Source of the DNA: a virus
Taxonomy: Duplodnaviria > Caudoviricetes
Strand: one strand, 5' to 3'
Virus record (IMG/VR): IMGVR_UViG_3300009183_000045
Length of the DNA: 64,000 nt
The notes beneath the pieces are model-generated. The model was not told where the DNA came from. It did not search any database and was given only the letters and a program-made list of their open reading frames with translations. This document shows, piece by piece, positions 28,373-58,077 of this stretch. The position numbers and the translations under genes were made by a program. The first letter of the stretch is position 1. The number at the start of each line of letters is the position of its first letter.

Positions 28373-28395
28373 TTCCCCCCATTCCCTTCTATTAT
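28373..28395 (+). promoter_or_regulatory. TTCCC-N12-TATTAT promoter
   Basis: 6 nt before ATG 28402. Confidence 0.7.
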
Positions 28396-28401
28396 TAAAA
28401 C

Positions 28402-29244
28402 ATGATTAACACATTGACATACGAAGAAGCAGTTCAGAAATGCCCCGCTATTGCAGCCACCGAGCCGTCTAGCAAGGCTTCAAAAAAGTACAACTTCATC
28501 TCCACTGGAGAAATTGTTCGCAAGGCCATGGATAATGATTGGGTTATTCGAGACACTAAAGCAGGACGAGGTCTCCACGGAGTTCATACGGTAAATTTGG
28601 TTCACAAATCTCAAACAGTTGTGGACCATCAAGAAGGATTTCCTCAGATTAGCCTGATTAATAGTCATAACCTTTCTCGCAGGTTTTCCTTGTCCCTTGG
28701 ATTCTTTCGCTTGGTCTGCTCTAACGGACTAATTGCTCCCGTTGGTTTGTGTCAATCTATTCGCCCCACACTCCACCGTCAAGGTGCTTTTGGCGACGGT
28801 AATGATGTCTTGGCTCTCCTCAATGAATCTTTTGGTCAATTTGACAACATTGTAAAACAGACCAAGACCATGAAGGAACGCCGGCTTTCCGGGGAAGAAA
28901 GGACCGTACTGGCTCGTTATGCCTACTATATCCGCTTTCGGTATCGCATGATGCAACCCAAGAAAGTAGATATGGGAGAACTTCTCAAACCTCGACGGAC
29001 TGCAGATGCAGGCACAGATCTATGGACCACTTTCAATGTGATTCAAGAAAATCTCGTCCGTGGAGGAACCCGAATTGGTAATGGTATCACCCAATTTCAG
29101 GATGAACTCCGATTCAATCAAGAACTTTGGACCGGAGTTGATAAAGCCGTGAATCACTGTGGAACAGATCTAGAAGTAGTTCTCAAGAATCTCTTTCCCA
29201 AGAAAGAAAGGGAAAAGAAAACCTTGATCATTGGGGATAATTAA
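28402..29244 (+). CDS. DUF932/DUF945 family protein
   Basis: LINSHNLSRRFSLSLGFFRLVCSNGL and DLWTTFNVIQENL. Confidence 0.75.
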   Translation: MINTLTYEEAVQKCPAIAATEPSSKASKKYNFISTGEIVRKAMDNDWVIRDTKAGRGLHGVHTVNLVHKSQTVVDHQEGFPQISLINSHNLSRRFSLSLGFFRLVCSNGLIAPVGLCQSIRPTLHRQGAFGDGNDVLALLNESFGQFDNIVKQTKTMKERRLSGEERTVLARYAYYIRFRYRMMQPKKVDMGELLKPRRTADAGTDLWTTFNVIQENLVRGGTRIGNGITQFQDELRFNQELWTGVDKAVNHCGTDLEVVLKNLFPKKEREKKTLIIGDN

Positions 29245-29257
29245 TTATTTACAATAT

Positions 29258-29467
29258 ATGAGCCTTCAAGTTTCTTTCGAAGATTTTCACAAAATGGTGA
29301 ATAAAGAATGTCTTAAACAAACTGGTTTAAACTTAATTGACATTCCCACCATATTTTGTGAAGATTTTTGGCCGGGAGATTATCAAGAAGTGGTAACAAT
29401 TCAAGACGCCAAAGTGGCCATGGAATTTATTATGGAGGCCATTCTTGAAGTCCTTGAGATTAGTTGA
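29258..29467 (+). CDS. Hypothetical protein (ATG at 29258)
   Basis: ORF track, with the start moved to the first ATG. Confidence 0.5.
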   Translation: MSLQVSFEDFHKMVNKECLKQTGLNLIDIPTIFCEDFWPGDYQEVVTIQDAKVAMEFIMEAILEVLEIS

Positions 29468-29479
29468 TAAGTATTTTTC

Positions 29480-30250
29480 ATGGCAGTACATGCAAACCCA
29501 CCAGCACTGATTTCAATGTCCCAGATAGTAGCAGAATTTGGAGGCACGGCCCCTCATTCTCTTTCTGAATACTACAGGAATGGTATCTATGTGGTGGGCA
29601 CTGGCGCTCCTAGTGTACCAATTAGCCCAGCAGCCATTCGTTTAAGTAATTTTTACGGAGCTTCTTTGTATACTCCCGGTGAACAATCATTTTCATCAGT
29701 TGGTAATTTCAGTTTTACAGTTCCTTCTGGAGCAACAAACTTAATGGTTATGGTTGTCGGCGGCGGCGGAGGTGGCGGCGGCTGTCAAGGAAGTGGAGAT
29801 AGTCACGCCGGCGGCGGCGGTGGTTCTGGTGGAAATACTGGTCTTGTTCATTTGGATGTCTCCCCTGGTCAGGTTTTTTATGGTAAAGTTGGAGCGGGGG
29901 GTCAAAACGCTGGGGTTTATTTTAATCAATGGATATTTCATAACAATAATACTTTTACAGGAACCCAGGGAGGCACCTCCACTTTTGGAACATTAAATGC
30001 AACTGGCGGCTTCGGCGGTTCTAGCAGTAATGGAGATTCCTGCACAGGGGCTTCTGGCGCTGGTGGCTCCCCAAATGGTGTAGCTGGCGGTGCTATAGAT
30101 TGTAATAGAAATTCATACGCAGCCACTCAGGGCGGCTATTATGGTTATGGTGGTGGTTATGGCCGCGGAGGAAATAGTCACGGTTATGGTGGTTCAGGTA
30201 TATATAACGGAACTTACGGAGGAAACGGTTATGTGTATTTATACTGGTAA
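29480..30250 (+). CDS. Glycine-rich virion/fibre-associated protein
   Basis: N-terminal ISMSQIVAEFGG..PHSLSEYYR and a VVGGGGGGG domain; TAAGTA 6 nt upstream. Confidence 0.6.
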   Translation: MAVHANPPALISMSQIVAEFGGTAPHSLSEYYRNGIYVVGTGAPSVPISPAAIRLSNFYGASLYTPGEQSFSSVGNFSFTVPSGATNLMVMVVGGGGGGGGCQGSGDSHAGGGGGSGGNTGLVHLDVSPGQVFYGKVGAGGQNAGVYFNQWIFHNNNTFTGTQGGTSTFGTLNATGGFGGSSSNGDSCTGASGAGGSPNGVAGGAIDCNRNSYAATQGGYYGYGGGYGRGGNSHGYGGSGIYNGTYGGNGYVYLYW

Positions 30251-30350
30251 ATGATATTGAAAATTGGGATATTAATTGTAAATATTATTAGTTCTGGTGC
30301 TCAAGTAGACTAGAATCAAAACAACACTTGCTCGAAAGAGGAGTATTAAT

Positions 30351-30839
30351 ATGACAACAAAACTAATAACTAGCACAAAGTCTCTAGCAGACACCTTGTA
30401 TGGCTTCAACCAATTGCCAGCATTGTTCAACGATAATTGGTTCCATAGTATCTTTGGTCAAGTCGACAAAGCATTTGACGCCCCCGGAGTTCACTATCCT
30501 TATAACGTCCTGGTCCATCGATCCAAGGACACAAACTCCCCATTTGAATATGAAATTCAAGTAGCTCTGGCTGGATTGAACCGAGAGGATATTAAAATTC
30601 AAGTCAAAGAAAATAAACTAATCATTGGTATAAATCCCAAAGAAGATGATATTATTGTCGATCATTTTATTTCTTATGTTCGAAATGGTATTAGCTATAG
30701 AAGAGCTTCTTTAGAATTCAGTTTAGCTAAAGAAGTAGAACCTCAAAACATCCATAGCAAATTTAAAAACGGTTTACTAAAGGTTTATGTCCCTTTAACT
30801 AAGCAAACATCCACAGACATTAACATCTCAGTAGATTAA
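30351..30839 (+). CDS. hsp20: Small heat-shock protein (Hsp20/IbpA family)
   Basis: YPYNV...YEIQVALAGLNREDIKIQVKENKLII...GISYR...FSLA...FKNGLLKVYV. Confidence 0.9.
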   Translation: MTTKLITSTKSLADTLYGFNQLPALFNDNWFHSIFGQVDKAFDAPGVHYPYNVLVHRSKDTNSPFEYEIQVALAGLNREDIKIQVKENKLIIGINPKEDDIIVDHFISYVRNGISYRRASLEFSLAKEVEPQNIHSKFKNGLLKVYVPLTKQTSTDINISVD

Positions 30840-30871
30840 AGTCCTTGCCTGAGCACCAGAGACTAACTTTT

Positions 30872-30906
30872 AAACTTGAGTATTTTAATTAATACTCAAG
30901 TTTTTT
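30872..30906 (+). terminator. Intrinsic terminator after hsp20
   Basis: Perfect 13-bp inverted repeat aaacttgagtatt/aatactcaagttt running into a T tract. Confidence 0.85.
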
Positions 30907-30915
30907 ATTTTTACA

Positions 30916-30921
30916 TAAATA
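30916..30921 (+). promoter_or_regulatory. T4-late-like promoter TAAATA
   Basis: 6 nt before ATG 30928. Confidence 0.6.
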
Positions 30922-30927
30922 TTATAT

Positions 30928-31833
30928 ATGGCTATTCATAATGACACCGCTCCTATTAAAATGTCTCAAATTGCTGCTGAATTTAGCCAGACATTTTCTA
31001 ATATGCATTTAAAATCATATTACAGAGGAGGTGGTATTGTTGGGACCAATAACACCAATGTGCCAGTGTCTCCTAATCCTATAGGTGTAAAAAGTTTCTA
31101 CGGAGCAGCAGCTGCTTTTACATACTCAGACATAATAGCCAGTGATACATACTATTATGATTTATACAGTGTTGCGGTTGCGGCTGGGTGGAATAAAGTA
31201 ATTCCTTTAAAGTTCTCAGCAACAATAAATAACGGTGTTGTAGTGGGTAGTGGCCCGGCGACAATACCTTGGTACTGGCTCAAGCAGGCATTTTATGTCC
31301 AGGGAACATTTCCCGCCGGTAGTGAAATAACTATATATAACAATGGTTATATAGTGGGCCAGGGCGCTTGTGGCGGCGGCGGCGGCCAATGGCCTTGGGA
31401 AAACAGCGGCGCAGGTCAAGGTGCTGGATGGCCTGGTTATAACGGGTGGGATGCTCTTTATGTTGAAACTCCAGTCATTATTTATAATTACGGGACTATT
31501 GGCGGCGGCGGCGGCGGCGGAGCCGGTGGAAAAAGTGCCGACAGTGGTCGCGAGTTATGGAACCGAGCCGGCTCCGGCGGCGGCGGTGCTGGAGCAGCTC
31601 CCTGTAATAATTATGTGTCGACCCCGGGAACTTTAACAACTGGAGGTGCAGGTTCTGATCCCATTGGAACTGACCCAGCTCGGGGCACGCGTGGGGGTAA
31701 TGGTGGAAACCTTGGCTATGCCGGTGAAAGTATGTTTGGCATCGCTGGTGGCTCAGCTGGTAAATGTGTAATAGGAAATCAATATATTACTTGGGCAGTC
31801 ACAGGTACTCGCCTCGGGCTAATTACAAATTAA
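30928..31833 (+). CDS. Glycine-rich virion/fibre-associated protein, paralogue of 29480..30250
   Basis: N-terminal IKMSQIAAEF...LKSYYRGG; IYNNGYIVGQGACGGGG. Confidence 0.6.
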   Translation: MAIHNDTAPIKMSQIAAEFSQTFSNMHLKSYYRGGGIVGTNNTNVPVSPNPIGVKSFYGAAAAFTYSDIIASDTYYYDLYSVAVAAGWNKVIPLKFSATINNGVVVGSGPATIPWYWLKQAFYVQGTFPAGSEITIYNNGYIVGQGACGGGGGQWPWENSGAGQGAGWPGYNGWDALYVETPVIIYNYGTIGGGGGGGAGGKSADSGRELWNRAGSGGGGAGAAPCNNYVSTPGTLTTGGAGSDPIGTDPARGTRGGNGGNLGYAGESMFGIAGGSAGKCVIGNQYITWAVTGTRLGLITN

Positions 31834-31914
31834 TTAATTTAAAATATATTCAAATTCTCAGATAAGCCTTTAAACAACTCTAGACTTTAAAGCCTATGTG
31901 TCATAAATAGATAC

Positions 31915-32121
31915 ATGGGCTTTCGTATTGATCCAGTAGATAAAGGGGGCGTATTTGATCATGATTTTTATACGTCTGAAAATTACACAAATGAAGTAAA
32001 GACTTTGATGTATTATTTAGAGGCAGAAGGATTTAACAGAAAACAAGAATCATTTTCTATCATGGTACAAGGTAGGACCTGGTTAGTAAAGCCTCATGAA
32101 ACACCTCCAAAGAAAAAATGA
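31915..32121 (+). CDS. Hypothetical protein
   Basis: ORF with TAAATA 5 nt upstream. Confidence 0.55.
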   Translation: MGFRIDPVDKGGVFDHDFYTSENYTNEVKTLMYYLEAEGFNRKQESFSIMVQGRTWLVKPHETPPKKK

Positions 32122-32567
32122 AAACTAGAACTATAATATCAGCTAGTTTATTGATCCCAATAGTTTTATTTGGGTCAATAAAAGAAACCCCTGAAAATTC
32201 TACACCCAATTTAAACAAACTTCGAATTAATCAAGAGGTTTATTTAACTGACACCCAAGGTATTGTTAATCCTAAAACAGTTTCAGTGTTACAAGTAGGA
32301 GATAATGTCCGTATCTATCGTCCTGATGGCACTCTCTACATCGGATTGGTGACAGAGACTAAGGAAGAAGAAGGGTCCCTTCGTATATACGGTAAAATTA
32401 ATAACGTAGAAGACACTCAATTTGGTTTTGCATTTGCAGCTGGTGGTCATTTTGCCGGCGCTATTATAGAACGAAAAAATGATAGGATATATGCCTTAGA
32501 ACTTAGTGAAGCTCATAAGGGATTTATTTTTCTCTATACTACAAAGTATGATAAGAAATTAATTTGA
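32118..32567 (+). CDS. Secreted or membrane-anchored hypothetical protein
   Basis: N-terminal MKTRTIISASLLIPIVLFG signal-like segment. Confidence 0.55.
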   Translation: MKTRTIISASLLIPIVLFGSIKETPENSTPNLNKLRINQEVYLTDTQGIVNPKTVSVLQVGDNVRIYRPDGTLYIGLVTETKEEEGSLRIYGKINNVEDTQFGFAFAAGGHFAGAIIERKNDRIYALELSEAHKGFIFLYTTKYDKKLI

Positions 32568-32580
32568 TAAAGTAAAACAA

Positions 32581-32610
32581 AAAACCCTTCCCGATACCAG
32601 GAAGGGTTTT
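32581..32610. terminator. Bidirectional intrinsic terminator
   Basis: aaaacccttcc-N8-ggaagggtttt between convergent genes. Confidence 0.85.
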
Positions 32611-32629
32611 ATTTTGGAGAAATTTAAAC

Positions 32630-33516: not shown

Positions 33517-33825
33517 ATGTCCGAATTTGAAGACTTCGCTAATGACGCCCTTGAAAATTTAAGAAGGGAGAGGAATAAATTCATGGCTCCAAAAGTTACA
33601 GAAACTTATATTCAGCCGGATGAAAAGGATTCAGATCCTACACCACCCTCTTTGGCTTACCTGGAACAATGTTGTCCAGAATCAGCTAATAGAAAAAAAG
33701 AAGATCCCAAAGATCGAAAAAAAAAATTACTAGATGATTTTATAATCACTATAGTTAATCAGTATCCTGAAAGTATTAGATCTCAAATTTTAGAGGAAGT
33801 AAAAAAATCTACTTCCGCGCCTTGA
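33517..33825 (+). CDS. Hypothetical protein (start MSEFED)
   Basis: TAAATT 5 nt upstream of ATG 33517. Confidence 0.5.
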   Translation: MSEFEDFANDALENLRRERNKFMAPKVTETYIQPDEKDSDPTPPSLAYLEQCCPESANRKKEDPKDRKKKLLDDFIITIVNQYPESIRSQILEEVKKSTSAP

Positions 33826-34141
33826 CTTTGAGCCTCTCTTTAATTTCATGCACGTCTACCTCTGGCTCCGGAAAGAATCCCAACACCGGACTTTTTCCTA
33901 ACATGGTTCCTACAAGAAGGACTTCTTCCATAGGCTTCAATTTCCACACACCTGTCTTCCTATCAAACTCGGCATAATCTGCTGCGATGAGACGGGTCTT
34001 CCAGGCGGATTCTTTGTCTTCTAGTCCGTGTGTATAGCCCTTGATGTATCCACTAACTTGAGACTGTACTCCGATCAATACAGCCAAGGAGATACCAGCG
34101 ACACCTTTGATATAAGGCAAACTCTTTTTAAATTCAATCAT
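33809..34141 (-). CDS. Membrane-anchored hypothetical protein
   Basis: Hydrophobic N-terminal segment; preceded by a TTCCC promoter. Confidence 0.6.
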   Translation of the reverse strand: MIEFKKSLPYIKGVAGISLAVLIGVQSQVSGYIKGYTHGLEDKESAWKTRLIAADYAEFDRKTGVWKLKPMEEVLLVGTMLGKSPVLGFFPEPEVDVHEIKERLKVKARK

Positions 34142-34147
34142 GTTTAT

Positions 34148-34170
34148 ATTCTAGTAGAGGTTTGTGGGAA
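34148..34170 (-). promoter_or_regulatory. TTCCC-N12-TAGAAT promoter
   Basis: 6 nt before ATG 34141. Confidence 0.7.
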
Positions 34171-34179
34171 CGACCCGAT

Positions 34180-35091
34180 TTACTTTGACACTGCGGTCCA
34201 AACGGTCGACGCACTCCGACCGTTCTTAACAACGAGCCCGGCATTGACTAGATCTTTCATTACCTTCTGGACCTTGGATACATCCCCGATGACCTCTGCA
34301 GCCTCCGCGGAGTTAATACTGCCTTGCTTTTTAATATGAGCCAGCACAGAATCCACAGCCACCTGGGATTTAGACTTGGTAGGTTTTTCATCATCCGAAA
34401 TTCCTACAGATTCAAAAGAAAATCCACTCTCGGTCATGGGAAACGCGGTTGTACCCGTACGACCGAAACGATTCTTGGTCACTTCAATTTCACGCACGGT
34501 TTCATCTTCTTCTGAAACTCGAAGCATAATGTTAGAATCAACACTATGAGGTAAAAGCGTCGAACCTTTATACTTTCCCTGCTTGGTAATATGGAGAATA
34601 ATTCCTACCACTACTTCGAGCTCCTTAGCACGAGCGGTGATGTAATTGGAAAGGTATTCTTCTTTCCGTTTACCCTCCAATCCAGAACGGGTCTCCAAAG
34701 AGGGAAGAGAATCGAGAACGATCATCTTATACCCACCTTCTTTTACTGCATCAAAGATATCTTCAACCACCGTAACATTTGCGATCGTAATATTCTTAAG
34801 ATTCAAACGCTTGGCTGCAAACGCCACCTGATAGATAGATTCTTCGCCAGAGACATAAGCGGTCTTCTTACCAGACTTTTCAAGCAACTCCAGGGTCTGG
34901 AGAAGCAAGGTGGTCTTACCTGCTCCCGGCTCACCTGCTAGGGTAAAGGTCTGACCAGGAAGAAATCCTTCACCTCCAAGAGCGAAATCTAAATCTTCAA
35001 TTCCGGTCTTAAAACGGCGATAGAAGATTTCTGGAATTTCTACCTCACTTACTTTCTGGAACCCACTTGTTGCTTTCATAATTTTCATCAT
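34180..35091 (-). CDS. radA: RadA/Sms-like RecA-fold ATPase lacking the Zn finger and Lon-like domains
   Basis: Walker A GEPGAGKTT, YVSGEES, Walker B VLDS and the KNRFG motif; start inferred from the promoter. Confidence 0.75.
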   Translation of the reverse strand: MMKIMKATSGFQKVSEVEIPEIFYRRFKTGIEDLDFALGGEGFLPGQTFTLAGEPGAGKTTLLLQTLELLEKSGKKTAYVSGEESIYQVAFAAKRLNLKNITIANVTVVEDIFDAVKEGGYKMIVLDSLPSLETRSGLEGKRKEEYLSNYITARAKELEVVVGIILHITKQGKYKGSTLLPHSVDSNIMLRVSEEDETVREIEVTKNRFGRTGTTAFPMTESGFSFESVGISDDEKPTKSKSQVAVDSVLAHIKKQGSINSAEAAEVIGDVSKVQKVMKDLVNAGLVVKNGRSASTVWTAVSK

Positions 35092-35097
35092 GTAATA

Positions 35098-35120
35098 ATA
35101 ATAGAGGATCTTAGAGGGAA
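35098..35120 (-). promoter_or_regulatory. TTCCC-N12-TATTAT promoter
   Basis: 6 nt before ATG 35091. Confidence 0.7.
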
Positions 35121-35182
35121 GCTCCCGCGATTTCCTCACGATGCTCATCTTGAGCTTTGTGATTGTTGGAGTTCTTCTTCAT
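35111..35182 (-). CDS. 23-aa micro-ORF MKKNSNNHKAQDEHREEIAGASL
   Basis: Read by hand; follows its own TTCCC-N12-TAAGAT promoter. Confidence 0.35.
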   Translation of the reverse strand: MKKNSNNHKAQDEHREEIAGASL

Positions 35183-35191
35183 CCTGTAATA

Positions 35192-35214
35192 ATCTTAGGA
35201 GAGGTTGTGGGGAA
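35192..35214 (-). promoter_or_regulatory. TTCCC-N12-TAAGAT promoter
   Basis: 9 nt before ATG 35182. Confidence 0.55.
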
Positions 35215-35234
35215 CTTCAAGATCTTTTTTAGAG

Positions 35235-35263
35235 TTGACTTCCCTTCAAATAGGATCTATCTT
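35235..35263 (+). promoter_or_regulatory. TTGACT-N17-TATCTT promoter containing TTCCC
   Basis: 6 nt before ATG 35270. Confidence 0.7.
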
Positions 35264-35269
35264 AAAATT

Positions 35270-35482
35270 ATGCATTGGAAACACCGGGAAATTACCTTAG
35301 AAAGACTAAGACAAACTGTAGAGAGAAGCCAGCAAGATCTGTCCAAACTTTTGTTAGAGGGAATTCTGGCAAAGCAACTAGATTCAGTGGAATATTACAA
35401 AGCACAAAGTCTCCTCACGGCACGCCTAAACATGTCTAAAAAAGACTTAGAAGCTTGGTTAGACATTCCCCGTTCCTTCTGA
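35270..35482 (+). CDS. Hypothetical protein (start MHWKHRE)
   Basis: ATG 6 nt after TTGACT-N17-TATCTT. Confidence 0.6.
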   Translation: MHWKHREITLERLRQTVERSQQDLSKLLLEGILAKQLDSVEYYKAQSLLTARLNMSKKDLEAWLDIPRSF

Positions 35483-35528
35483 TAATATATAAACATGATT
35501 GAATCCTTTATTTGCATTAAGTATTAAT

Positions 35529-35651
35529 ATGGGAAAGAAACACAATTCCGCTGATGATGGAATCCCTGCTGAAGCCTTCCTTTTTTTTCTTTCCGTTCTC
35601 TTAATACAAATAATTATTTTTACTGGAATAATGATCAGGGTAAGTCTTTAG
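35529..35651 (+). CDS. 40-aa single-TM membrane protein
   Basis: Read by hand: MGKKHNSADDGIPAEAFLFFLSVLLIQIIIFTGIMIRVSL. Confidence 0.5.
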   Translation: MGKKHNSADDGIPAEAFLFFLSVLLIQIIIFTGIMIRVSL

Positions 35652-35653
35652 GA

Positions 35654-35659
35654 TAAATA
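35654..35659 (+). promoter_or_regulatory. T4-late-like promoter TAAATA
   Basis: 6 nt before ATG 35666. Confidence 0.6.
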
Positions 35660-35665
35660 TATTAT

Positions 35666-36055
35666 ATGCGCACAAAAGATCACATCGGATTAGAAAAAGT
35701 TTATTCATTGATAATGGAATCCAGAGCCGCTGGAGCCGAAAGTCAAGTTGCTGGAGAAAGTGCTAAAGCATTGGCTATAGAAAAGACTTTAATCAAATCC
35801 ATTACAGAAGATTTGAATACAACTGCTGCTCATCTTCAGAATATTCAACCGTTAATTGGAACCTTTGAAGAAGGAGCCTTAGGAGAAGATTTTCAATCTT
35901 TGATGACCGCCATTCAGTCCGTTCAAGCGGCAGCAGAGTCTTTGCAGGGAAGAATGCCCGAAGAAGAAGAATCTGTTGAAGGAGAAGGCGAAGGCGGCGA
36001 AGTTCCTTCGGATTTCCCTGAAAACGGCGGAGAAGGTGAAATGCCTCCTGTTTAA
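35666..36055 (+). CDS. Late acidic protein with MRTKD N-terminal motif (possible internal head protein)
   Basis: TAAATA 6 nt upstream; N-terminus similar to 47468..48106. Confidence 0.55.
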   Translation: MRTKDHIGLEKVYSLIMESRAAGAESQVAGESAKALAIEKTLIKSITEDLNTTAAHLQNIQPLIGTFEEGALGEDFQSLMTAIQSVQAAAESLQGRMPEEEESVEGEGEGGEVPSDFPENGGEGEMPPV

Positions 36056-36081: not shown

Positions 36082-36112
36082 AAAAAAGCCACGGCAAATC
36101 CGTGGCTTTTTT
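36082..36112. terminator. Intrinsic terminator
   Basis: aaaaaagccacgg-caaat-ccgtggctttttt. Confidence 0.9.
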
Positions 36113-36119
36113 GTTGCAC

Positions 36120-36142
36120 TTCCGCCAATTTAAATGTATTAT
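36120..36142 (+). promoter_or_regulatory. TTCCG-N12-TATTAT promoter variant
   Basis: 6 nt before ATG 36149. Confidence 0.6.
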
Positions 36143-36148
36143 AGAGTT

Positions 36149-37153
36149 ATGAAATTAGCAGTCATTGAAAAAATTAATGAACTTCTTCCTATTGAAGGAG
36201 CAGATCGTATTGAATTGGCAGTGGTCCAGGGATGGAAGGCAGTTGTTAAGAAGGGTGAATTCGAAGTAGGACAAATGGTGGTCTTCATTCCTATTGATAC
36301 CGTTATGGAGCCCAGACATTGGAATGAATTCCTCTGGGACAAAGAAGACCCTAGCAAACCCATCAGAGTAAAGACCGTCAAACTTCGAGGACAAGTATCT
36401 CAGGGTCTTGTGTTCTCCGTTAAAATCACTGGTACTATCTGGCAAGTGATGGGCAATGATGTTTCCGAGACTTTAGGAGTTACCAAATATGAACGCCCGA
36501 TTCCAGCTAGCTTGCAAGGTGAAGTGAGAGGTAGTTTCCCTTCTCACTTGATCAGTCGGACAGATGAAGATAATCTCCTGTCCAATATTAAGGTCTTAGA
36601 AGAGTTGAAAAAAAGTGACTATGTCCAGGTAACTTTAAAAATGGATGGTAGTAGCATGACCGCTCTTAAAACTGCAGAAGGAGAATTTCATGTTTGTTCG
36701 CGCAATTTAGATTTGAAAGAAACAGAAGAGAATTCTTTCTGGAAAGCAGCTAGAATGTATAATCTAGAAGAACAGATTGAACCCGGCACTGCCTTCCAGT
36801 TTGAACTGTGCGGACCTGGAATTCAAAAAAATCTAATAGGATTAAAAGAATTAAGTTTATATTTGTTTAATGCCAAGAACCTTTCATCTGGAGAATACTT
36901 CAACCCAGTATTCAGGCCCAACGAATCGACTATAAAAAGTGTTCCACTTGTTAAGTCTTTCACTGCTGGAGAGATCCTCCAGTTGACTACAGAAGAATTG
37001 CAAGAATTGGCCAATAAACAAAAGTATCCAAGTGGTCTTCCTGCTGAGGGTATTGTTATAAGAGGATTTGATAGCGAAGGTAAATCTAGATACAGCGAGC
37101 ATTTGCAAAAGATGTTAAGTGTTAAGATTATTAATCAAAATTACAAAGATTAA
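36149..37153 (+). CDS. RNA ligase, DRB0094/Rnl2-like family
   Basis: N-terminal IEGADRIELAVVQGWKAVVKKGEF; motif I KMDGSS; FELCG; EGIV. Confidence 0.85.
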   Translation: MKLAVIEKINELLPIEGADRIELAVVQGWKAVVKKGEFEVGQMVVFIPIDTVMEPRHWNEFLWDKEDPSKPIRVKTVKLRGQVSQGLVFSVKITGTIWQVMGNDVSETLGVTKYERPIPASLQGEVRGSFPSHLISRTDEDNLLSNIKVLEELKKSDYVQVTLKMDGSSMTALKTAEGEFHVCSRNLDLKETEENSFWKAARMYNLEEQIEPGTAFQFELCGPGIQKNLIGLKELSLYLFNAKNLSSGEYFNPVFRPNESTIKSVPLVKSFTAGEILQLTTEELQELANKQKYPSGLPAEGIVIRGFDSEGKSRYSEHLQKMLSVKIINQNYKD

Positions 37154-47487: not shown

Positions 47488-48106
47488 CGGCTTGAGCGGA
47501 ACCCGGAACCGGGGGTGCACTAGTAGGAGGAACCATTCCTCCTAAGTTTGATTTCTTTTCTCTATAATCTGAAGGCATACCAGAAGCTTTTTGACCTGTG
47601 AAGGCCATTAAAGATTCTCTAATCTTTGGAACATATTGTGCTAATTTTTCATTCTTAGCTGCGGCATCTAACACCTCATTGACTTTGTCTTGATTTTGTT
47701 GTATGAGAGTTTTTGCTTCTGCAATCTTCGGAGCAGCGGTTGCAATTGCAGTACCAACTTTTCCTATTCCTCTTTCTGCAAATTTTCCGACTGTACCCAA
47801 TTCCTTTAAAGCTTTAGATCCTTTAGATATCCATCCAGCAATTTTAGGTAACTTAGCCAATTCTCCCACTTCCGGAATACAAGATATCAAACTGAAAGCT
47901 GCATTGAGCCAGTCTCCTTCTTCCGCATACCAAAGAGTATTGGTGAGATCAAACGGAATATTTAAACCCGGCACCCAAAAGGTGGCCAGAGAAGCCACAT
48001 CCAACGCAGCATGTCCTACATCAGACCAAGTACCTTCCTTAACCATTTGTTGTCTCTTCATGGAAAGATAAAGATTTTCTAGTTGAATCTGATCCTTGGT
48101 GCGCAT
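47468..48106 (-). CDS. Late protein with MRTKD leader and pre-toxin TG-like domain
   Basis: HAALDVAS...VPG...DLTNTLWYAEEGDWLNAAFSLISCIPEVG; TAAATA 6 nt upstream. Confidence 0.6.
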   Translation of the reverse strand: MRTKDQIQLENLYLSMKRQQMVKEGTWSDVGHAALDVASLATFWVPGLNIPFDLTNTLWYAEEGDWLNAAFSLISCIPEVGELAKLPKIAGWISKGSKALKELGTVGKFAERGIGKVGTAIATAAPKIAEAKTLIQQNQDKVNEVLDAAAKNEKLAQYVPKIRESLMAFTGQKASGMPSDYREKKSNLGGMVPPTSAPPVPGSAQAATQGVA

Positions 48107-48112
48107 ATTATA

Positions 48113-48118
48113 TATTTA
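48113..48118 (-). promoter_or_regulatory. T4-late-like promoter TAAATA
   Basis: 6 nt before ATG 48106. Confidence 0.6.
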
Positions 48119-48738
48119 TGGATGTGATGTATAAATTCTCAGAAGAAGATTATGATAAATTGTTTGTCACCTCAGACACACATTTTAACCATGATAAAGA
48201 ATTTGTATGGAATACAAGAGGCTATTCTAGTTCTCTAGAGATGACAGATGATATGATTGAAGTCATTAATAAAACAGTTGGAGAAGATGGTACTCTTTTA
48301 CATCTAGGTGATTTCTGCTTAAACACTAGCACAGAAATGTATCGGAATATTCTACAACGTCTCAAAATTAAAGCAATCTGGATGCTCTGGGGTAATCACA
48401 ATAACCCTATTCAAAAAAGTTATGGAGGAAGGGTAGAACAGATTAATGCCTTTCATGGTCCCTTGTATATCAAATATCTCCAACACTATTTTACATTTCG
48501 TCGAGGCAAGAAAACATTTGTTTGTTTGCATTATCCCATGAGAATATGGGATGGAATGTATCACGGAGCCATGCATTTGTGTGGTCATAGTCACGGTTCA
48601 TTAGAAGTTTCTAGACCAGAAAATAAAATCTACAAGATATTAGATTGTGGTTGGGATATCCACAAGAAGCCATTGACAATGAAAGAAATTGAAGATATAA
48701 TGAATACGAAAGAAATTAACAATTTACACCACGTATGA
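48118..48738 (+). CDS. Calcineurin-like metallophosphoesterase
   Basis: SDTHFNH, HLGDF, GNHN, HYP, GHSH. Confidence 0.85.
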   Translation: MDVMYKFSEEDYDKLFVTSDTHFNHDKEFVWNTRGYSSSLEMTDDMIEVINKTVGEDGTLLHLGDFCLNTSTEMYRNILQRLKIKAIWMLWGNHNNPIQKSYGGRVEQINAFHGPLYIKYLQHYFTFRRGKKTFVCLHYPMRIWDGMYHGAMHLCGHSHGSLEVSRPENKIYKILDCGWDIHKKPLTMKEIEDIMNTKEINNLHHV

Positions 48739-48893
48739 ACTTTACCCCAAATCCTAAAACTCATTTTTATATTAGTATTCTTAAATCCGGTTTTCGCATC
48801 TGGGCTGGTTGGAAATTAATTAAAGGAGACGCCATTACAGCCGGAGTTCTTTTAATCTCTGCAGAGATTCTGGGTATTGTAGAAGAACTATAA
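48735..48893 (+). CDS. 52-aa membrane protein missed by the ORF track
   Basis: MNFTPNPKTHFYISILKSGFRIWAGWKLIKGDAITAGVLLISAEILGIVEEL; ATGA overlap with the upstream gene. Confidence 0.6.
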   Translation: MNFTPNPKTHFYISILKSGFRIWAGWKLIKGDAITAGVLLISAEILGIVEEL

Positions 48894-48986: not shown

Positions 48987-49005
48987 CCCTTCTTAAAGCT
49001 TCCGG

Positions 49006-49028
49006 TTCCCCTCAACATCCTCTATTAT
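49006..49028 (+). promoter_or_regulatory. TTCCC-N12-TATTAT promoter
   Basis: 6 nt before ATG 49035. Confidence 0.7.
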
Positions 49029-49034
49029 AAAAAT

Positions 49035-49232
49035 ATGTATTACACCGTATATGTCCGTGGTCTTCTAAACCAAATGGTTCCACTAGAAGTTAATTATGAA
49101 AAAATGATGTTCAATCTCGAAACCGGTGAACACCTCACTACAGCAGAAACCCTTCTTCTGGAACAGCTGCACCCAGAACTATTAGACCGGTACTTTGAAA
49201 TGCAGGGTGCCGTTCCTCTTCGTTCTCTCTAA
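49035..49232 (+). CDS. Hypothetical protein
   Basis: TTCCC promoter 6 nt upstream. Confidence 0.6.
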   Translation: MYYTVYVRGLLNQMVPLEVNYEKMMFNLETGEHLTTAETLLLEQLHPELLDRYFEMQGAVPLRSL

Positions 49233-49244
49233 TATTGTATCATA

Positions 49245-49403
49245 ATGAATGATGAACTAGCTGAAATGTATTCGGAATGGCTTGCAGAACAAAATTTAGT
49301 CAAAGCTTGGGATTACGCAGAAGAGCACACTCTAAGAGATGATTCTCCGGAAATCTTAGTGACGCCAGATTGGTCCACCTGGTGCCAACAACTTTGTTCT
49401 TAA
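49245..49403 (+). CDS. 52-aa hypothetical protein
   Basis: Read by hand (MNDELAEMYSEWLAEQ...). Confidence 0.5.
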   Translation: MNDELAEMYSEWLAEQNLVKAWDYAEEHTLRDDSPEILVTPDWSTWCQQLCS

Positions 49404-49412
49404 TCCTTGAAC

Positions 49413-49435
49413 TTCCCAGCTGAATCCTTTAATAT
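49413..49435 (+). promoter_or_regulatory. TTCCC-N12-TAATAT promoter
   Basis: 7 nt before ATG 49443. Confidence 0.7.
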
Positions 49436-49442
49436 TAACACA

Positions 49443-49709
49443 ATGAAGAACACAAATCCAAACCACCACGACATGTATACTCTTGAACATTCCTTTAAAA
49501 CCTCCTTTATTGATGCTGCACAATCTGTAGTTTCCTGGAGAGAGCCTCTAGAAGATCTCCTTTCAGAATATATCACCGAAGCTGAACACCAAGAAGGAGT
49601 TGGTTACTGGGACCAGTTTGATAGTGTCTCAGATGCTGTAGAAGATTTTACGAGGTTTGTTTCCTTCTGCGAAAATTCTGATAGTAGTAATCACGCGTTT
49701 GAACTGTAA
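49443..49709 (+). CDS. Hypothetical acidic protein
   Basis: ATG 7 nt after a TTCCC-N12-TAATAT promoter. Confidence 0.6.
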   Translation: MKNTNPNHHDMYTLEHSFKTSFIDAAQSVVSWREPLEDLLSEYITEAEHQEGVGYWDQFDSVSDAVEDFTRFVSFCENSDSSNHAFEL

Positions 49710-51358: not shown

Positions 51359-51377
51359 TCAGAAAATCCCCGGGAGG

Positions 51378-51400
51378 TTCCCAGCAACTTAACCTAATAT
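51378..51400 (+). promoter_or_regulatory. TTCCC-N12-TAATAT promoter
   Basis: 9 nt before ATG 51410. Confidence 0.7.
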
Positions 51401-51409
51401 AAAAGAATA

Positions 51410-51598
51410 ATGAACCGAGAAACCAAAACTGTAGTACTTAACCTGTTAGACGAACTGTATGAGAAGCGAGGAAATGTTTCCTTAACCCGAACTATGGAAG
51501 ATCTAAGTGCAGCTGAAATTCGAGTTCTCGAGGGAGAATTTGATGCTTATTTTAAACGCACAGTTAGTAAAATCGAAAATTACATTAGCCAAGAATAA
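51410..51598 (+). CDS. Hypothetical protein
   Basis: TTCCC promoter upstream. Confidence 0.6.
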   Translation: MNRETKTVVLNLLDELYEKRGNVSLTRTMEDLSAAEIRVLEGEFDAYFKRTVSKIENYISQE

Positions 51599-51599
51599 T

Positions 51600-52674: not shown

Positions 52675-52676
52675 TT

Positions 52677-53594: not shown

Positions 53595-53617
53595 TCTATA
53601 ATCAATAACTTAATTAG

Positions 53618-53652
53618 ACACTCTAACACTTTGTTTGTTAGAGTGTTTTTTT
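53618..53652 (+). terminator. Intrinsic terminator
   Basis: acactctaaca-N7-tgttagagtgt followed by a T tract. Confidence 0.85.
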
Positions 53653-53687
53653 TTGTTATTTGATTCCCTTTAAGAATAAGTTTTGGT

Positions 53688-54629: not shown

Positions 54630-54683
54630 TTAACAATTCTTTTCATTTTTCTTTAAGACACTTCCTAAATTTGGAGTTAAAAA

Positions 54684-55988
54684 TCAATTTCGTCCTACTC
54701 CGTAATATTCAAACCCAATATTCTTCATAGTGGGTGGATCTAAAAGATTTCGTCCATCAAAAAGAAGTGGAGTGTGCATAATAGATTTTATTTTATAAAA
54801 ATCTTGTTTTGCAAATTCTTTCCATTCAGTTGCTATTAATAACGCCTCAGCACCTATTACGGCTTCCACAGCGGAGTCTGCTAGTCTAACAAGAGGATTC
54901 AATAATTTATATTCAATAACATTTTGCATTCCTTTAGGATCATAAGCAGTCACTATGGCACCTTCTTCTGTTAATCTGTTAATAAGCTGTATTGCAACAG
55001 AGTTGCGCACATCATCTGTATCTGGCTTAAATGTTAAACCCCACACAGCGATAGGTTTATTCTTTAAAACCCATAGAGAGTCTTTAATTTTTTTTATAAA
55101 TCTTTCTAATTGATTTGAATTTATTTGTTCTACTTCTTTAAGAAGGTTAAAAGGAGTTCCTAATTCTTCTGCAATAGCAATAAATGCCTTTACATCTTTA
55201 GGAAAACAAGAACCTCCGTAACCTAGTCCAGCATTTAAAAAGTTTCTGCCTATGCGTTTGTCTGCACCCATTCCATCTGCCACCTTTTCTATATCAGCCC
55301 CACTGGCTTCGCATACAGCTGCAACAGCGTTAATGTAAGAGATCTTAAGAGATAAAAAAGAATTGGCTGCATGTTTAATTAATTCAGCAGAATTTGTATC
55401 TGTTACTATAATAGGTGCATTAAAGGGTTTGTACAACTCCTTCATAAATCCTATAGCAGTAGAGGAAGAAGATCCTATAACTATTCGATCTGGATTCATT
55501 AAATCTTCTATAGCACATCCTTCTCTAAGAAATTCCGGATTAGACACTACATCTATATCAGCTTCTTTGTTATATCTAAGAATAGTATCTTTAACCCTAT
55601 CTCCAGTCTTTACCGGAACAGTAGACTTATCTACAATTACTCTATATTTTCTAGGTTCTATTACTCCTGCAATTTCTCTAGACACTTGTTCGATGTAGGT
55701 TAGATCCACTCCACCATCAGCCTGAGGAGGAGTCGGCACTGCTATGAATATTATTAAACTATCAGCTATTCCCTTTTCTAGAGAATCAGTAAAACTTAGG
55801 CGATGATTTAATACATTCTTTTTAACAAGTTCTTCCAAACCAGGCTCATATATTGGAATCTCTCCTTGCTGTAACATCTTTATTTTTTTCTTATTAGTAT
55901 CTACACACACCACATGATGTCCCTTTTCAGCAAAGCAAGCACCTGATACAAGACCCACATAACCAGTCCCTATAATACAAATATTCAT
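54684..55988 (-). CDS. ugd: UDP-glucose/GDP-mannose 6-dehydrogenase
   Basis: IGTGYVGL, KSTVPV, SNPEFLREG, GYGGSCFPKD, FKPDTDDVR. Confidence 0.95.
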   Translation of the reverse strand: MNICIIGTGYVGLVSGACFAEKGHHVVCVDTNKKKIKMLQQGEIPIYEPGLEELVKKNVLNHRLSFTDSLEKGIADSLIIFIAVPTPPQADGGVDLTYIEQVSREIAGVIEPRKYRVIVDKSTVPVKTGDRVKDTILRYNKEADIDVVSNPEFLREGCAIEDLMNPDRIVIGSSSSTAIGFMKELYKPFNAPIIVTDTNSAELIKHAANSFLSLKISYINAVAAVCEASGADIEKVADGMGADKRIGRNFLNAGLGYGGSCFPKDVKAFIAIAEELGTPFNLLKEVEQINSNQLERFIKKIKDSLWVLKNKPIAVWGLTFKPDTDDVRNSVAIQLINRLTEEGAIVTAYDPKGMQNVIEYKLLNPLVRLADSAVEAVIGAEALLIATEWKEFAKQDFYKIKSIMHTPLLFDGRNLLDPPTMKNIGFEYYGVGRN

Positions 55989-56008
55989 GATGATATTTAT
56001 TCGTGAAG

Positions 56009-56031
56009 TTCCCCGCAGCTTCCTCTAATAT
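56009..56031 (+). promoter_or_regulatory. TTCCC-N12-TAATAT promoter
   Basis: 6 nt before ATG 56038. Confidence 0.7.
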
Positions 56032-56037
56032 TATTAC

Positions 56038-56304
56038 ATGATGAAAAAGAACAAGAGAGTGGAAGCAGTTAAGGAAGCCCTTCGCCAACCCTTCACATGG
56101 CCTGGAGCTTATCCCAAGACCTTCCAGTCTTATGACGGATGTCTCTGTGCTGATTGTGTCCGTGGTAATTTCAGAGCTGTGGTGAATGATACTAAGATGA
56201 ATGCAGGTCCCTGGAATCTTAGAGTAGATGTCCTGTGGGAAGGTGAAGCATGGTGTGCTGATTGTGGAGAAGAAATTGAAACTGCTTATGGAACCCAAGA
56301 CTGA
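56038..56304 (+). CDS. Cys-containing hypothetical protein
   Basis: FTWPGAYP, CLCADC, WCADC. Confidence 0.65.
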   Translation: MMKKNKRVEAVKEALRQPFTWPGAYPKTFQSYDGCLCADCVRGNFRAVVNDTKMNAGPWNLRVDVLWEGEAWCADCGEEIETAYGTQD

Positions 56305-56446
56305 AGACGAGATCGAAAGATGGGTAGAGATGATGATAGATCGAGTGGATATGAAATATTCAGTTGGTCGCCTCTCTACAGAAGAGTATAATAAAGAAGT
56401 AAAAAAAATTAGTGAACAAGCAGACAAGTATTATGATAACCTCTAA
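56288..56446 (+). CDS. Hypothetical protein
   Basis: ORF from ATG 56288. Confidence 0.5.
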   Translation: MEPKTEDEIERWVEMMIDRVDMKYSVGRLSTEEYNKEVKKISEQADKYYDNL

Positions 56447-56474
56447 AGATCTGAGAACTAATCGCAAAGTTGGA

Positions 56475-57086
56475 ATGAATCGCCAAGGTCTTTCTTCCTC
56501 TCCCTTTTTCGCTATTCGTAAAAATAAAGTTTGCTGGCCCACCTATCGCAAAGCTTATATGACAGATGAGAATGTTTCGATTCTTAAGAAATATGTAACC
56601 GGTAAAGGACGCTCAATTGTGTTTTTGGACGGAACGTATGAGACTAAATTAAATAGGTATGTAAGAAAAGATCCTGTAGAAAGGGCTTGCTTCTTTGAAT
56701 TTATGCTACGAAAGAAAGGTGTCAAAGGAGCCATCCAAACATTGGTGTGGTTAGGAAATTTCCATAATGGAAATATAATTCATTTCGGTCCTCAATTTTC
56801 ACAAATGCAATGCTGGGTTGAAGCCTTGGGATATGAAAGAGCAATGTTATTTTTTGAAGAGGGTTGTTTCAACATATATAAAGAAATTGCTAATATCCTA
56901 TATAGTGGCAACATCCTAGATGAAGAAGTAAAAGAGTTTATAGAGAATGGCGACGAATTTCTGCAGAGAGCTGCCGTGGTAGATCCAGTAGTTTCTACTA
57001 AGAAAATTGCGCAGAAACGCGCCGTAAACAAGCTCAACGCTCGTCCAGTGGTCAGGAGACCTCTCGAGCTAGAAACCGCAGCATAA
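56475..57086 (+). CDS. Hypothetical protein
   Basis: 203-aa ORF from ATG 56475. Confidence 0.6.
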   Translation: MNRQGLSSSPFFAIRKNKVCWPTYRKAYMTDENVSILKKYVTGKGRSIVFLDGTYETKLNRYVRKDPVERACFFEFMLRKKGVKGAIQTLVWLGNFHNGNIIHFGPQFSQMQCWVEALGYERAMLFFEEGCFNIYKEIANILYSGNILDEEVKEFIENGDEFLQRAAVVDPVVSTKKIAQKRAVNKLNARPVVRRPLELETAA

Positions 57087-57100
57087 CATTTTAAGTGACC

Positions 57101-57123
57101 TTCCCCTCAAAAACCAACATAAT
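57101..57123 (+). promoter_or_regulatory. TTCCC-N12-CATAAT promoter
   Basis: 7 nt before ATG 57131. Confidence 0.6.
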
Positions 57124-57130
57124 AAACACA

Positions 57131-57355
57131 ATGAAATACATCATCAATACAAACACCGCAGGTCGTCCTAACCACAACCCCTCTCTGGCTCTTGCTATGA
57201 AAGCCCTCCAACCCGGACAGCATTTCTTTGCCAGTGTAAGTGATCAGATTTCCGTACACAGCTTTAAACGTTCTCTTACCAAGGTCTTTACCACCAAGAC
57301 AGTTAAGAACGGAAAGAGCCGCCGACTGAAAGTTACCTGCACCGCATCTTACTAA
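57131..57355 (+). CDS. Small basic protein
   Basis: ATG 7 nt after a TTCCC promoter. Confidence 0.6.
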   Translation: MKYIINTNTAGRPNHNPSLALAMKALQPGQHFFASVSDQISVHSFKRSLTKVFTTKTVKNGKSRRLKVTCTASY

Positions 57356-57356
57356 T

Positions 57357-57524
57357 ATGATTCAATTAAACCTAACCATTGAAGAAGTCAATGCAATCTT
57401 AACGGTTCTTGGACAGATCCCAACCAACAGTGGAGTATACCCTTTGTTGATGAAAATTAAAGAACAAGGAGAAGCACAGGTTCCACCAGAACCCCAGTCC
57501 AGTCCAGTAGTTGTTGAAGGTTAA
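57357..57524 (+). CDS. 55-aa protein missed by the ORF track
   Basis: MIQLNLTIEEVNAILTVLGQIP...; ends just before a terminator. Confidence 0.6.
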   Translation: MIQLNLTIEEVNAILTVLGQIPTNSGVYPLLMKIKEQGEAQVPPEPQSSPVVVEG

Positions 57525-57540
57525 ATTACTTTATCCTTCT

Positions 57541-57584
57541 AAAACTAGAAAGTCAATATTTCGTTGGCTTTCTAGTTTTTTTAT
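57541..57584 (+). terminator. Intrinsic terminator
   Basis: aaaactagaaagtcaa-N7-ttggctttctagtttt followed by a T tract. Confidence 0.85.
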
Positions 57585-57608
57585 TTTTATAACACAAACC
57601 ATTAAAAT

Positions 57609-57809
57609 ATGAGTCTTAAAAACAATTCAACAGACAAATCAGATCCTTGGCCGGATGATTACAAAGCCCTTCAGAAGCTTCTAGATAAAATGACTAAAGA
57701 ATCAGAAGAGAAAGATCCTTATCATACAGTAGAGACTGCTTCCCTTATATTAGATGAAATACTATTAGAGGACATATTGAAAACCCACACTGTCAAACTC
57801 CTAGATTAA
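57609..57809 (+). CDS. Hypothetical protein
   Basis: ORF. Confidence 0.5.
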   Translation: MSLKNNSTDKSDPWPDDYKALQKLLDKMTKESEEKDPYHTVETASLILDEILLEDILKTHTVKLLD

Positions 57810-57862
57810 AAATATATTCATTTGTAAGAGAATTTTTAGAAACTTTAAAGTATAATATTCAT

Positions 57863-58045
57863 ATGACAGACCATAATAACGAAGCCAAAGTATTTCAATT
57901 GTGCACAGAGCTAGAAGACACAAAGAAGAAAAAGAAACAAGTCGTCGGTGCTTACAACGACGAGATTAAGAGGTTACAGGCAGAGATCAAAGACCTCGTG
58001 AACCCAGAAGAGGCCTTTGATATTCACAACGACGAATTGCCTTAG
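57863..58045 (+). CDS. Small coiled-coil protein
   Basis: TATAAT 6 nt upstream. Confidence 0.6.
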   Translation: MTDHNNEAKVFQLCTELEDTKKKKKQVVGAYNDEIKRLQAEIKDLVNPEEAFDIHNDELP

Positions 58046-58054
58046 AGAGGGAGG

Positions 58055-58077
58055 TTCCCTTCTAGAACCGTTATTAT
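58055..58077 (+). promoter_or_regulatory. TTCCC-N12-TATTAT promoter
   Basis: 11 nt before ATG 58089. Confidence 0.65.

Follow-up and report, generated by a model that had tools for sequence, protein, structure and literature searches.

A repeated promoter-like cassette upstream of early-region genes

The 64-kb window analysed here (the whole stretch of 64,000 nt, IMG/VR record IMGVR_UViG_3300009183_000045) is part of a 214,677-bp sequence from an uncultured freshwater T4-like phage, and encodes tail-fibre genes, hsp20, two RNA ligases, a RadA/Sms-like ATPase and many ORFans. Several of its gene boundaries carry a short repeated unit, hereafter the TTCCC cassette, in which a TTCCC box lies 12 nt upstream of a -10 hexamer and shortly before the start codon of the next gene. 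A first-pass annotation of the window had proposed a single promoter-like class of this kind, with a fixed TTCCC upstream of a sigma70-type -10 and in front of early-region genes, and our analysis supports this proposal.

Overall, the window contains 13 matches to TTCCC-N12-YAnnAT, where dinucleotide-preserving shuffles predict 2.28 (none of 100 reached 13), and extending the pattern at its 5' end to kkG-N3-TTCCC gives 9 matches against 0.10 expected. Matches at 12960 (-) and 42421 (+) were rejected as cassettes, since both are internal to open reading frames (ORFs) and lack a subsequent ATG, in line with the chance expectation. The genuine cassettes number 14, i.e., 11 TTCCC copies and three variants (TTCCG, TTCCT and one copy shifted by 1 nt), and each is co-oriented with the next gene, whose ATG lies 6-11 nt past the -10; for the 11 TTCCC copies this gap is 6 nt (six copies), 7 nt (two), 9 nt (two) or 11 nt (one). 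All ten TTCCC-N12-(T/C)AnnAT copies reported initially were recovered, as were the copy with TTCCG (36120) and the shifted one (35240), and their reported placement at gene boundaries preceding an ATG was borne out; two further copies, at 35466 (+) and a TTCCT variant with its box at 49213, had been overlooked. A generic sigma70 scan showed no enrichment in this AT-rich DNA (77 matches vs. 69) and missed most cassettes. The cassette observation is thus real, and stronger than first stated. The window copies are as follows:

28367..28404, plus strand: cassette with -35 TGGCAG, TTCCC 28373-28377, -10 TATTAT 28390-28395 and ATG 28402, before gene 28402-29244 (+; DUF932, 280 aa), whose orthologous G001 promoter also has TTCCC
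34139..34176, minus strand: cassette with -35 GGGTCG, TTCCC 34170-34166, -10 TAGAAT and ATG 34141, before gene 33809-34141 (-; 110 aa), whose G001 orthologue has a TTCCC promoter
35089..35126, minus strand: cassette with -35 GGGAGC, TTCCC 35120-35116, -10 TATTAT and ATG 35091, before gene 34180-35091 (-; RadA/Sms-like ATPase, 303 aa)
35180..35220, minus strand: cassette with -35 TTGAAG, TTCCC 35214-35210, -10 TAAGAT and ATG 35182, before a 23-codon ORF that overlaps the next promoter
35235..35272, plus strand: shifted copy, -35 TTGACT overlapping TTCCC 35240-35244 by 1 nt, 17-bp spacer, -10 TATCTT 35258-35263 and ATG 35270 (70 aa), divergent from two minus-strand promoters
35460..35497, plus strand: cassette with -35 TAGACA, TTCCC 35466-35470, -10 TAATAT 35483-35488 and ATG 35495
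36114..36151, plus strand: variant with -35 TTGCAC, TTCCG 36120-36124, -10 TATTAT 36137-36142 and ATG 36149, before an RNA ligase gene
49000..49037, plus strand: cassette with TTCCC 49006-49010, -10 TATTAT 49023-49028 and ATG 49035 (65 aa); box kept in the L002 orthologue
49207..49247, plus strand: variant with -35 GTGCCG, TTCCT 49213-49217, -10 TAATAT 49230-49235 and ATG 49245 (52 aa)
49407..49445, plus strand: cassette with -35 TTGAAC, TTCCC 49413-49417, -10 TAATAT and ATG 49443 (88 aa)
51372..51412, plus strand: cassette with -35 GGGAGG, TTCCC 51378-51382, -10 TAATAT and ATG 51410 (62 aa)
56003..56040, plus strand: cassette with -35 GTGAAG, TTCCC 56009-56013, -10 TAATAT and ATG 56038 (ATGATG start, 88 aa); box kept in the L002 and G001 orthologues
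57095..57133, plus strand: cassette with -35 GTGACC, TTCCC 57101-57105, -10 CATAAT and ATG 57131 (74 aa)
58049..58091, plus strand: cassette with -35 GGGAGG, TTCCC 58055-58059, -10 TATTAT and ATG 58089 (105 aa)

The genes downstream of these cassettes, cast in the first-pass annotation as putative host-takeover genes, are mostly small, and most have no Pfam family. The cassette at 35460 is followed, within 35460-35530, only by a 10-codon ORF, and may represent a micropeptide gene, the source of a short RNA or a relic of rearrangement.

The architecture of the unit was derived from an alignment of 33 copies (from the window and three related loci) and from a second alignment of 225 distinct copies taken from 605 kb of related sequence. 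Reading 5' to 3', the previous gene ends at a constant position in TAA or TAG; after 3 nt come kTGnnn, TTCCC(C) and a variable segment in which A is favoured at box position +8 and C at +13, followed by TAnnAT, five mostly A/T bases, C and then A. This last A falls at the predicted +1 in 32 of the 33 copies (in the set where A was not required), and in 20 of the 33 it is the A of the ATG, i.e., the start codon begins exactly 6 nt past the -10. The initial description of a varying -35 next to a fixed TTCCC was accurate but left out a regularity: the hexamer that abuts TTCCC on its 5' side, spaced exactly 17 bp from the -10, retains G at its third place (-33) in 31 of 33 copies and has T or G at its first two places (T being preferred in the 225-copy set), which indicates a degenerate -35 at canonical 17-bp spacing. 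TTCCC itself occupies -29 to -25, so that TTCCC(C) fills the first 5-6 bp of the 17-bp spacer (about -29 to -24). The cassettes thereby show the layout that defines sigma70-type promoters (-35 TTGnnn, -10 TAnnnT, 17 +/- 1 bp), and as judged from sequence their geometry is that of a primary-sigma promoter, with a -35, a 17-bp spacer, a -10 and a predicted +1 seven bases on. No conserved RNA structure was detected in 55 cassettes (mean folding z-score 0.10, 9% below -2), and a terminator-like hairpin followed through by a T-run lies just upstream of one copy alone, that of the RNA ligase (about 36086-36113).

Conservation and distribution of the TTCCC box

The reference for comparison was G001 (IMGVR_UViG_3300027770_000027), a complete relative of 227,352 bp (CheckV completeness 100%) whose RadA-like protein is 70% identical to that of the window; two related loci, L001 and L002, were used beside it for orthologue comparison, and the RadA-like proteins of the more distant relatives L365 and L366 are 56% and 53% identical, respectively. 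Searches against the phage collection returned no match for 8.5 kb of the window (megablast) and only matches below 60% identity for the RadA-like protein (tblastn), while neither an RNA ligase query for related loci nor an exact 41-mer search found anything in IMG/VR. The strict cassette pattern was present in ~45 further freshwater metagenome contigs, where up to 12 cassettes are arrayed within 14 kb, and in only three contigs of IMG/VR. In G001 the pattern matched 46 times on one strand and three times on the other (1/1 for a reversed-pattern control), and ~50 cassettes are gathered within a single ORFan-rich region of ~60 kb, nearly all of them abutting an ATG.

The box also emerges when it is not part of the search. 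With sites set by the -10, the C-A and a nearby ATG only, the box position was filled by TTCCC in 41 of 145 G001 sites and 8 of 30 window sites, the runner-up 5-mer occurring three times. When kkG was required as well, the 605 kb (made of loci that were fetched because each holds at least one cassette) yielded 255 sites, among which 201 had TTCCC, 15 had TTCCT, the only recurrent variant, and the other 5-mers were found once to three times each.

Orthologous promoters were compared in a one-sided test, in which the orthologue of a window gene was identified in G001, L002 or L001 by protein similarity and its upstream region was then read. In every one of the 11 instances, which cover all seven window promoters with orthologues, TTCC(C/G) was kept at an unchanged spacing, and the spacer positions were ~25-45% identical. 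The box of the RadA-like cassette is kept in three orthologous promoters with a variable spacer, the L002 and G001 orthologues of the 49407 cassette keep box and -10 with a spacer different at most positions, and the RNA-ligase promoter, TTCCG in the window, reads TTGCCC-TTCCC in G001. Such retention of the box while the spacer diverges shows that the box is under purifying selection, as opposed to mere inheritance with a recently copied repeat. The more distant L365 and L366 share the TTGnnn-17-TAnnnT-6..9-ATG layout, and there the box is not invariant, although traces of it may reflect a softer and wider preference: several spacers start with nnTCC or nGCCT, TTCCA stands in the promoter of the RadA orthologue, and TTCCC itself in one promoter of L366. 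On these comparisons, TTCCC is a selected and putatively promoter-borne element that is peculiar to this phage clade.

A few promoters of the box-bearing clade in which the -35 is good (TTGAAT, TTGATT, TTGACG or TTGACA) have no box or a partial one (TTCCA, GTCCC), which suggests that the box may offset a weak -35. A window example is:

48083..48120, plus strand: box-less sigma70-like leaderless promoter, TTGAAT-17-TATTAT-6-ATG, with a better -35, before a metallophosphoesterase-like gene (48118-48738)

Its G001 orthologue (TTGATT) likewise has no box, and similar promoters end at ATG 38122 and ATG 63093 of the window.

Predicted leaderless starts in early and late genes

The coincidence of the predicted +1 with the start codon, a point absent from the first-pass annotation, suggests that cassette messages probably start at the ATG and are leaderless. 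The 58049 cassette, with its 11-nt gap, likely gives a short leader instead. The start codons themselves are supported by the RadA-like ORF, which from ATG 35091 equals the called protein of 303 aa (homologues 300-303 aa), and by orthologue alignments that begin at residue 1. No peak of GGAG, GAGG or AGGA was found upstream of ORFs in the window or in G001, and the 36 well-defined starts that were inspected have A/T-rich upstream regions, so that neither by these peaks nor by eye was a Shine-Dalgarno sequence or a usable 5' untranslated region apparent. The single Shine-Dalgarno-like GAGGAG precedes hsp20 (30351-30839), at normal spacing (window 30335-30353).

Another, unrelated element shows the same arrangement. 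The T4-type late box ATAAATA is found 5-6 nt before an ATG seven times against 1.4 expected, all seven at ORF starts, and large structural genes as well as ugd are among the genes it precedes:

6258-6273, plus strand: ATAAATA late box, ATG 6271
25730-25745, minus strand: ATAAATA late box, ATG 25732
30915-30930, plus strand: ATAAATA late box, ATG 30928
31903-31917, plus strand: ATAAATA late box, ATG 31915
35653-35668, plus strand: ATAAATA late box, ATG 35666
48104-48119, minus strand: ATAAATA late box, ATG 48106
55986-56000, minus strand: ATAAATA late box, ATG 55988

On this geometry late mRNAs would also be leaderless, and the fact that two unrelated promoter types place their predicted +1 on the ATG strengthens the leaderless interpretation.

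One could alternatively regard the cassette not as a promoter but as an RNA-level signal for translation or processing within long early transcripts, given that a phage without a Shine-Dalgarno signal must have some other start-site signal and that conserved, A/U-rich sequence lies immediately before the ATG. However, the conserved parts of the unit (TTG, the 17-bp spacer, TAnnAT and C-A) reproduce polymerase geometry, most operon-internal genes lack the element yet must be translated, the folding analysis gave no conserved structure, and the ATAAATA late boxes stand at the same 5-6 nt from the ATG. We therefore find an RNA-level role highly improbable.

Approximately 72% of cassette genes (in the window, G001 and metagenome loci) begin with ATGATGAA, encoding Met-Met-Lys/Asn, i.e., with an ATGATG start. 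These tandem starts and the A-rich codons 2-3 are part of the repeated unit, and may aid leaderless initiation or be bound by a translational repressor.

In Actinobacteria and Deinococcus, leaderless mRNAs similarly have a TAnnnT -10 ~6-7 nt before the AUG and no Shine-Dalgarno (PMC4633059, PMC4007540), as does the leaderless cI message of phage lambda transcribed from PRM. The difference is that leaderless starts are here the predicted rule of a whole T4-like phage, across early and late promoter types. The searched literature contained no report of leaderless translation in Verrucomicrobia, and neither a TTCCC element nor leaderless early cassettes of T4-like phages were described there; a primary-transcriptome study of phage phiKZ by differential RNA sequencing reported no leaderless phage transcript (PMC8244752). 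If the start sites were confirmed, this clade would express dozens of early, and apparently late, genes from leaderless mRNAs without Shine-Dalgarno sequences.

Probable host affiliation and the polymerase likely to read the cassettes

The UDP-glucose 6-dehydrogenase gene ugd (window 54684-55988, -) shows 67-73% identity to counterparts in Spartobacteria, Chthoniobacter and other Verrucomicrobial metagenome-assembled genomes (MAGs), and at most 53% to those of the next best phyla. It is likely a host-derived gene, which would indicate a Verrucomicrobial host of the Chthoniobacterales lineage. The gene is present in L002 and absent from G001. A loose form of the cassette pattern, searched in genome contigs, pointed to no host: among the matches listed, it gave single ones scattered across many phyla. 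Since promoters and initiation signals are essentially unstudied in the probable host order, leaderless expression, if true, would offer new insight into translation in an uncultured host.

As to the enzyme, Pfam profile searches of G001 gave no match to Sigma70_r4 or Sigma70_r4_2, none to T7-type RNA polymerase (the RNA_pol model having no positive control among 14 control genomes), and none to MotA_activ, MotCF or AsiA (PF09114, PF09158, PF09010), for which the same 14 genomes yielded no true positive, so that sensitivity is undemonstrated. The only sigma-like gene in G001 encodes a 209-aa, gp55-like protein with a weak region-2 match, located between a helicase gene and a gp47-like nuclease gene, which is the place of T4 gene 55, the late sigma. 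With no phage polymerase, sigma region 4, MotA or AsiA detected in G001, host polymerase is the likely enzyme. Readings of CTTGA...CCCCA as sigma32-like or sigma28-like were ruled out by wrong spacing, an ECF-type (extracytoplasmic function sigma) GGAAC on the opposite strand by wrong orientation, and a GGGAG/TTCCC hairpin by too short a loop and the lack of a folding signal.

Promoters of the host lineage were sampled upstream of tRNA genes, located in the MAGs with Rfam (ARAGORN gave none in 370 kb of MAG sequence). Upstream of 13 tRNA genes (loci L367-L426) of the Chthoniobacterales MAGs G002-G004 we observed TTGnnn-16..18-TAnnnT ending 10-16 nt before the tRNA, with a -35 that is mostly TTGCnn and a promoter often following an A-run. 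These 13 predicted promoters give a first outline of how primary-sigma promoters look in this little-studied order. Phage hexamers such as TTGCAG, TTGCGG and TTGAGG are closer to TTGCnn than to TTGACA, a likeness that lends modest support to recognition by the primary sigma of this lineage.

The ~50 copies per genome stand before the ORFan region, where few other promoters occur, and so have the appearance of the principal early class, whose firing has to precede all phage protein synthesis. From the geometry described above, we consider it reasonably probable that TTCCC cassettes are the main early promoters of these phages, carrying an auxiliary box, read by the host primary-sigma polymerase and giving rise to leaderless mRNAs. 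The host primary-sigma polymerase would most likely read the -35 and the -10 and start at the C-A, usually at the A of the ATG, yielding a leaderless mRNA. Alongside the weak -35 hexamers, TTCCC would strengthen or specify polymerase binding, either directly or via a helper, and unlike the MotA box of T4 it would not be a substitute for the -35.

Several points weigh against this interpretation. Promoter activity, start site and leaderless status are all deduced from geometry. About one third of the copies have GTG or GGG instead of TTG at the -35, which is poor for a primary sigma. We know of no contact of bacterial RNA polymerase with bases -29 to -24, so that an invariant five-base element at this place is not explained by polymerase alone. 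None of the 13 tRNA promoters has a TTCCC box, a comparison of low power made in the candidate host lineage, and TTCCC-N12-TAnnAT is not enriched in five Verrucomicrobial MAGs (5-18 matches vs. 3-10 for the control), although the MAG tests are weak, with low power, full-consensus promoters being rare in any host. The leaderless form was found 0-1 times per MAG, and individual MAG matches lack a -35 or an ATG and are not promoter-like. Absent from the tRNA promoters and unenriched in MAGs, TTCCC does not seem to mimic a host consensus. Finally, the box-less promoters with a good -35 leave room for a two-class scheme, one early and one activated.

Such a scheme would resemble the middle promoters of T4, in which a MotA box replaces the -35, centred near -30 and spaced 12 +/- 1 from the -10 (PMC2988021). 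An unrecognised phage protein, made from the box-less promoters or injected, would bind TTCCC at ~-27 and recruit or re-aim host polymerase, being MotA/AsiA-like in function and unrelated in sequence. The TTCCC cassette indeed shares with T4 middle promoters a sigma70-type -10 and a phage-specific box that ends 12 nt upstream of it and is centred near -30. An activator would likewise fit the invariance of the box where no polymerase contact is known, its restriction to this clade (absent from the host-lineage tRNA promoters, not invariant in L365 and L366) and the weakness of the accompanying -35 hexamers, and the minority box-less class could express the factor first. The MotA analogy drawn in the first-pass annotation therefore holds for the position and spacing of the box, but not beyond: TTCCC is unrelated to the TGCTT of the MotA box ((a/t)(a/t)TGCTT(t/c)a), and the -35 kTG is retained at 17 bp. 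The conserved G at -33, at exactly 17 bp, suggests that sigma region 4 still reads the -35, a contact that sigma appropriation abolishes, and ~50 copies before the ORFan region are what would be seen for the earliest class. Pfam scans of 18 early window proteins identified no DNA-binding or sigma-like family and no candidate activator, and, with the caveat on MotA/AsiA sensitivity given above, the G001 searches also count against such a factor. The alternative-sigma or activator system suggested initially thus found no support in any test run, G001 having only the gp55-like late sigma, and we judge an activator-dependent class unlikely. It is nonetheless tempting to speculate, doubtful as the proposal may be, that an as yet unrecognisable phage protein, injected or immediate-early, docks on TTCCC(C) at -29 to -24 and co-reads the ~50 promoters with the host primary sigma; this would be a second, independently evolved promoter appropriation in T4-like phages, here in phages of Verrucomicrobia, and coupled to the AUG starts of every primary transcript. 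Finding what reads TTCCC would uncover a contact between polymerase and DNA that is not yet known or else a novel transcription factor of the phage.

Comparison with known early promoter systems

The early promoters of T4 have conserved positions beyond the host -35 and -10 elements, forming an "uber" sigma70 class (Hinton, 2010, PMC2988021). TTCCC cassettes would resemble them as host-polymerase promoters with extra conserved positions, used at once after infection, whereas T4 early promoters combine an excellent -35, TGn and UP elements with leadered mRNAs. By comparison, the TTCCC cassette has no room for a UP element (the stop codon lies 3 nt before the -35), a degenerate -35 and its extra element within the spacer.

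The closest described element is the PeSL (promoter-early stem-loop) cassette of phages RB49 and phi1, where ~50 strong early promoters extend from upstream stop to next start in plastic regions (PMC2839356) and mediate modular gene shuffling (Arbiol et al., 2010, PMC2839356). Common to both types are ~50 repeated early promoters, ORFan-rich plastic regions and the stop-to-start packing (14 copies in the window, ~50 in G001), and the TTCCC cassettes also show signs of an association with gene gain, loss and relocation between relatives. Unlike PeSLs, TTCCC cassettes have no stem-loop (as the mean folding z-score indicates), no Shine-Dalgarno at the 3' end and no leader, the ATG standing at the predicted +1; their -35 is weak where that of PeSLs is consensus, and the invariant TTCCC(C) has no PeSL counterpart. 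The TTCCC type is best filed as PeSL-like and leaderless, with a selected box in its spacer. At 45 nt, the cassette is a compact promoter-plus-start unit and a precise marker for gene starts and early regions in this clade.

Relatives differ in whether they carry several of the cassette genes. Within 33809-35482 of the window, two divergent genes that stand side by side in G001 enclose, in inverted orientation, the RadA-like gene with its cassette and two small ORFs, and the RadA-like gene is elsewhere in G001 and L002, in the main early array (the regions compared were G001, reverse complement, 121.0-121.3 kb and 136.1 kb, and L002 ~9.5-11 kb). The boundaries of the RadA region coincide with cassettes, which may point to a cassette-mediated relocation.

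These differences in gene order at cassette boundaries, as with PeSLs (PMC2839356), bear on another possibility, namely that TTCCC is a DNA-level signal laid over ordinary early promoters: a repressor operator, a mark for 7-deazaguanine modification (its complement being GGGAA) or the core of a recombination homology. A role of this kind would explain why the box is selected though outside known polymerase contacts, and L366 encodes QueC. Five bases are, however, too few for homologous recombination (the whole 45-nt cassette would be long enough, but its spacer varies freely), repressors do not usually bind one non-palindromic half-site, and no link was found between a modification system and TTCCC. 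We give a DNA-level signal little credence, and retain an auxiliary box in host-read early promoters as the preferred interpretation.

Other features of the window

A perfect TTGACA-17-TATAAT sequence (48673-48701, +) lies inside the 3' end of the metallophosphoesterase-like gene, and a 52-codon ORF (48735-48893) follows ~30 nt later. No other 12/12 match to the consensus occurs in the region, and a transcript started at the 48673 site would be leadered.

Further downstream, the 128-aa protein encoded at 59763-60149 (+) has no Pfam family, all of its Atlas leads being sub-threshold (Phage_T4_Y07B). It is 95% identical to its G001 orthologue, against ~60% for the neighbouring genes, and on this comparison appears to be an early protein under unusual constraint.

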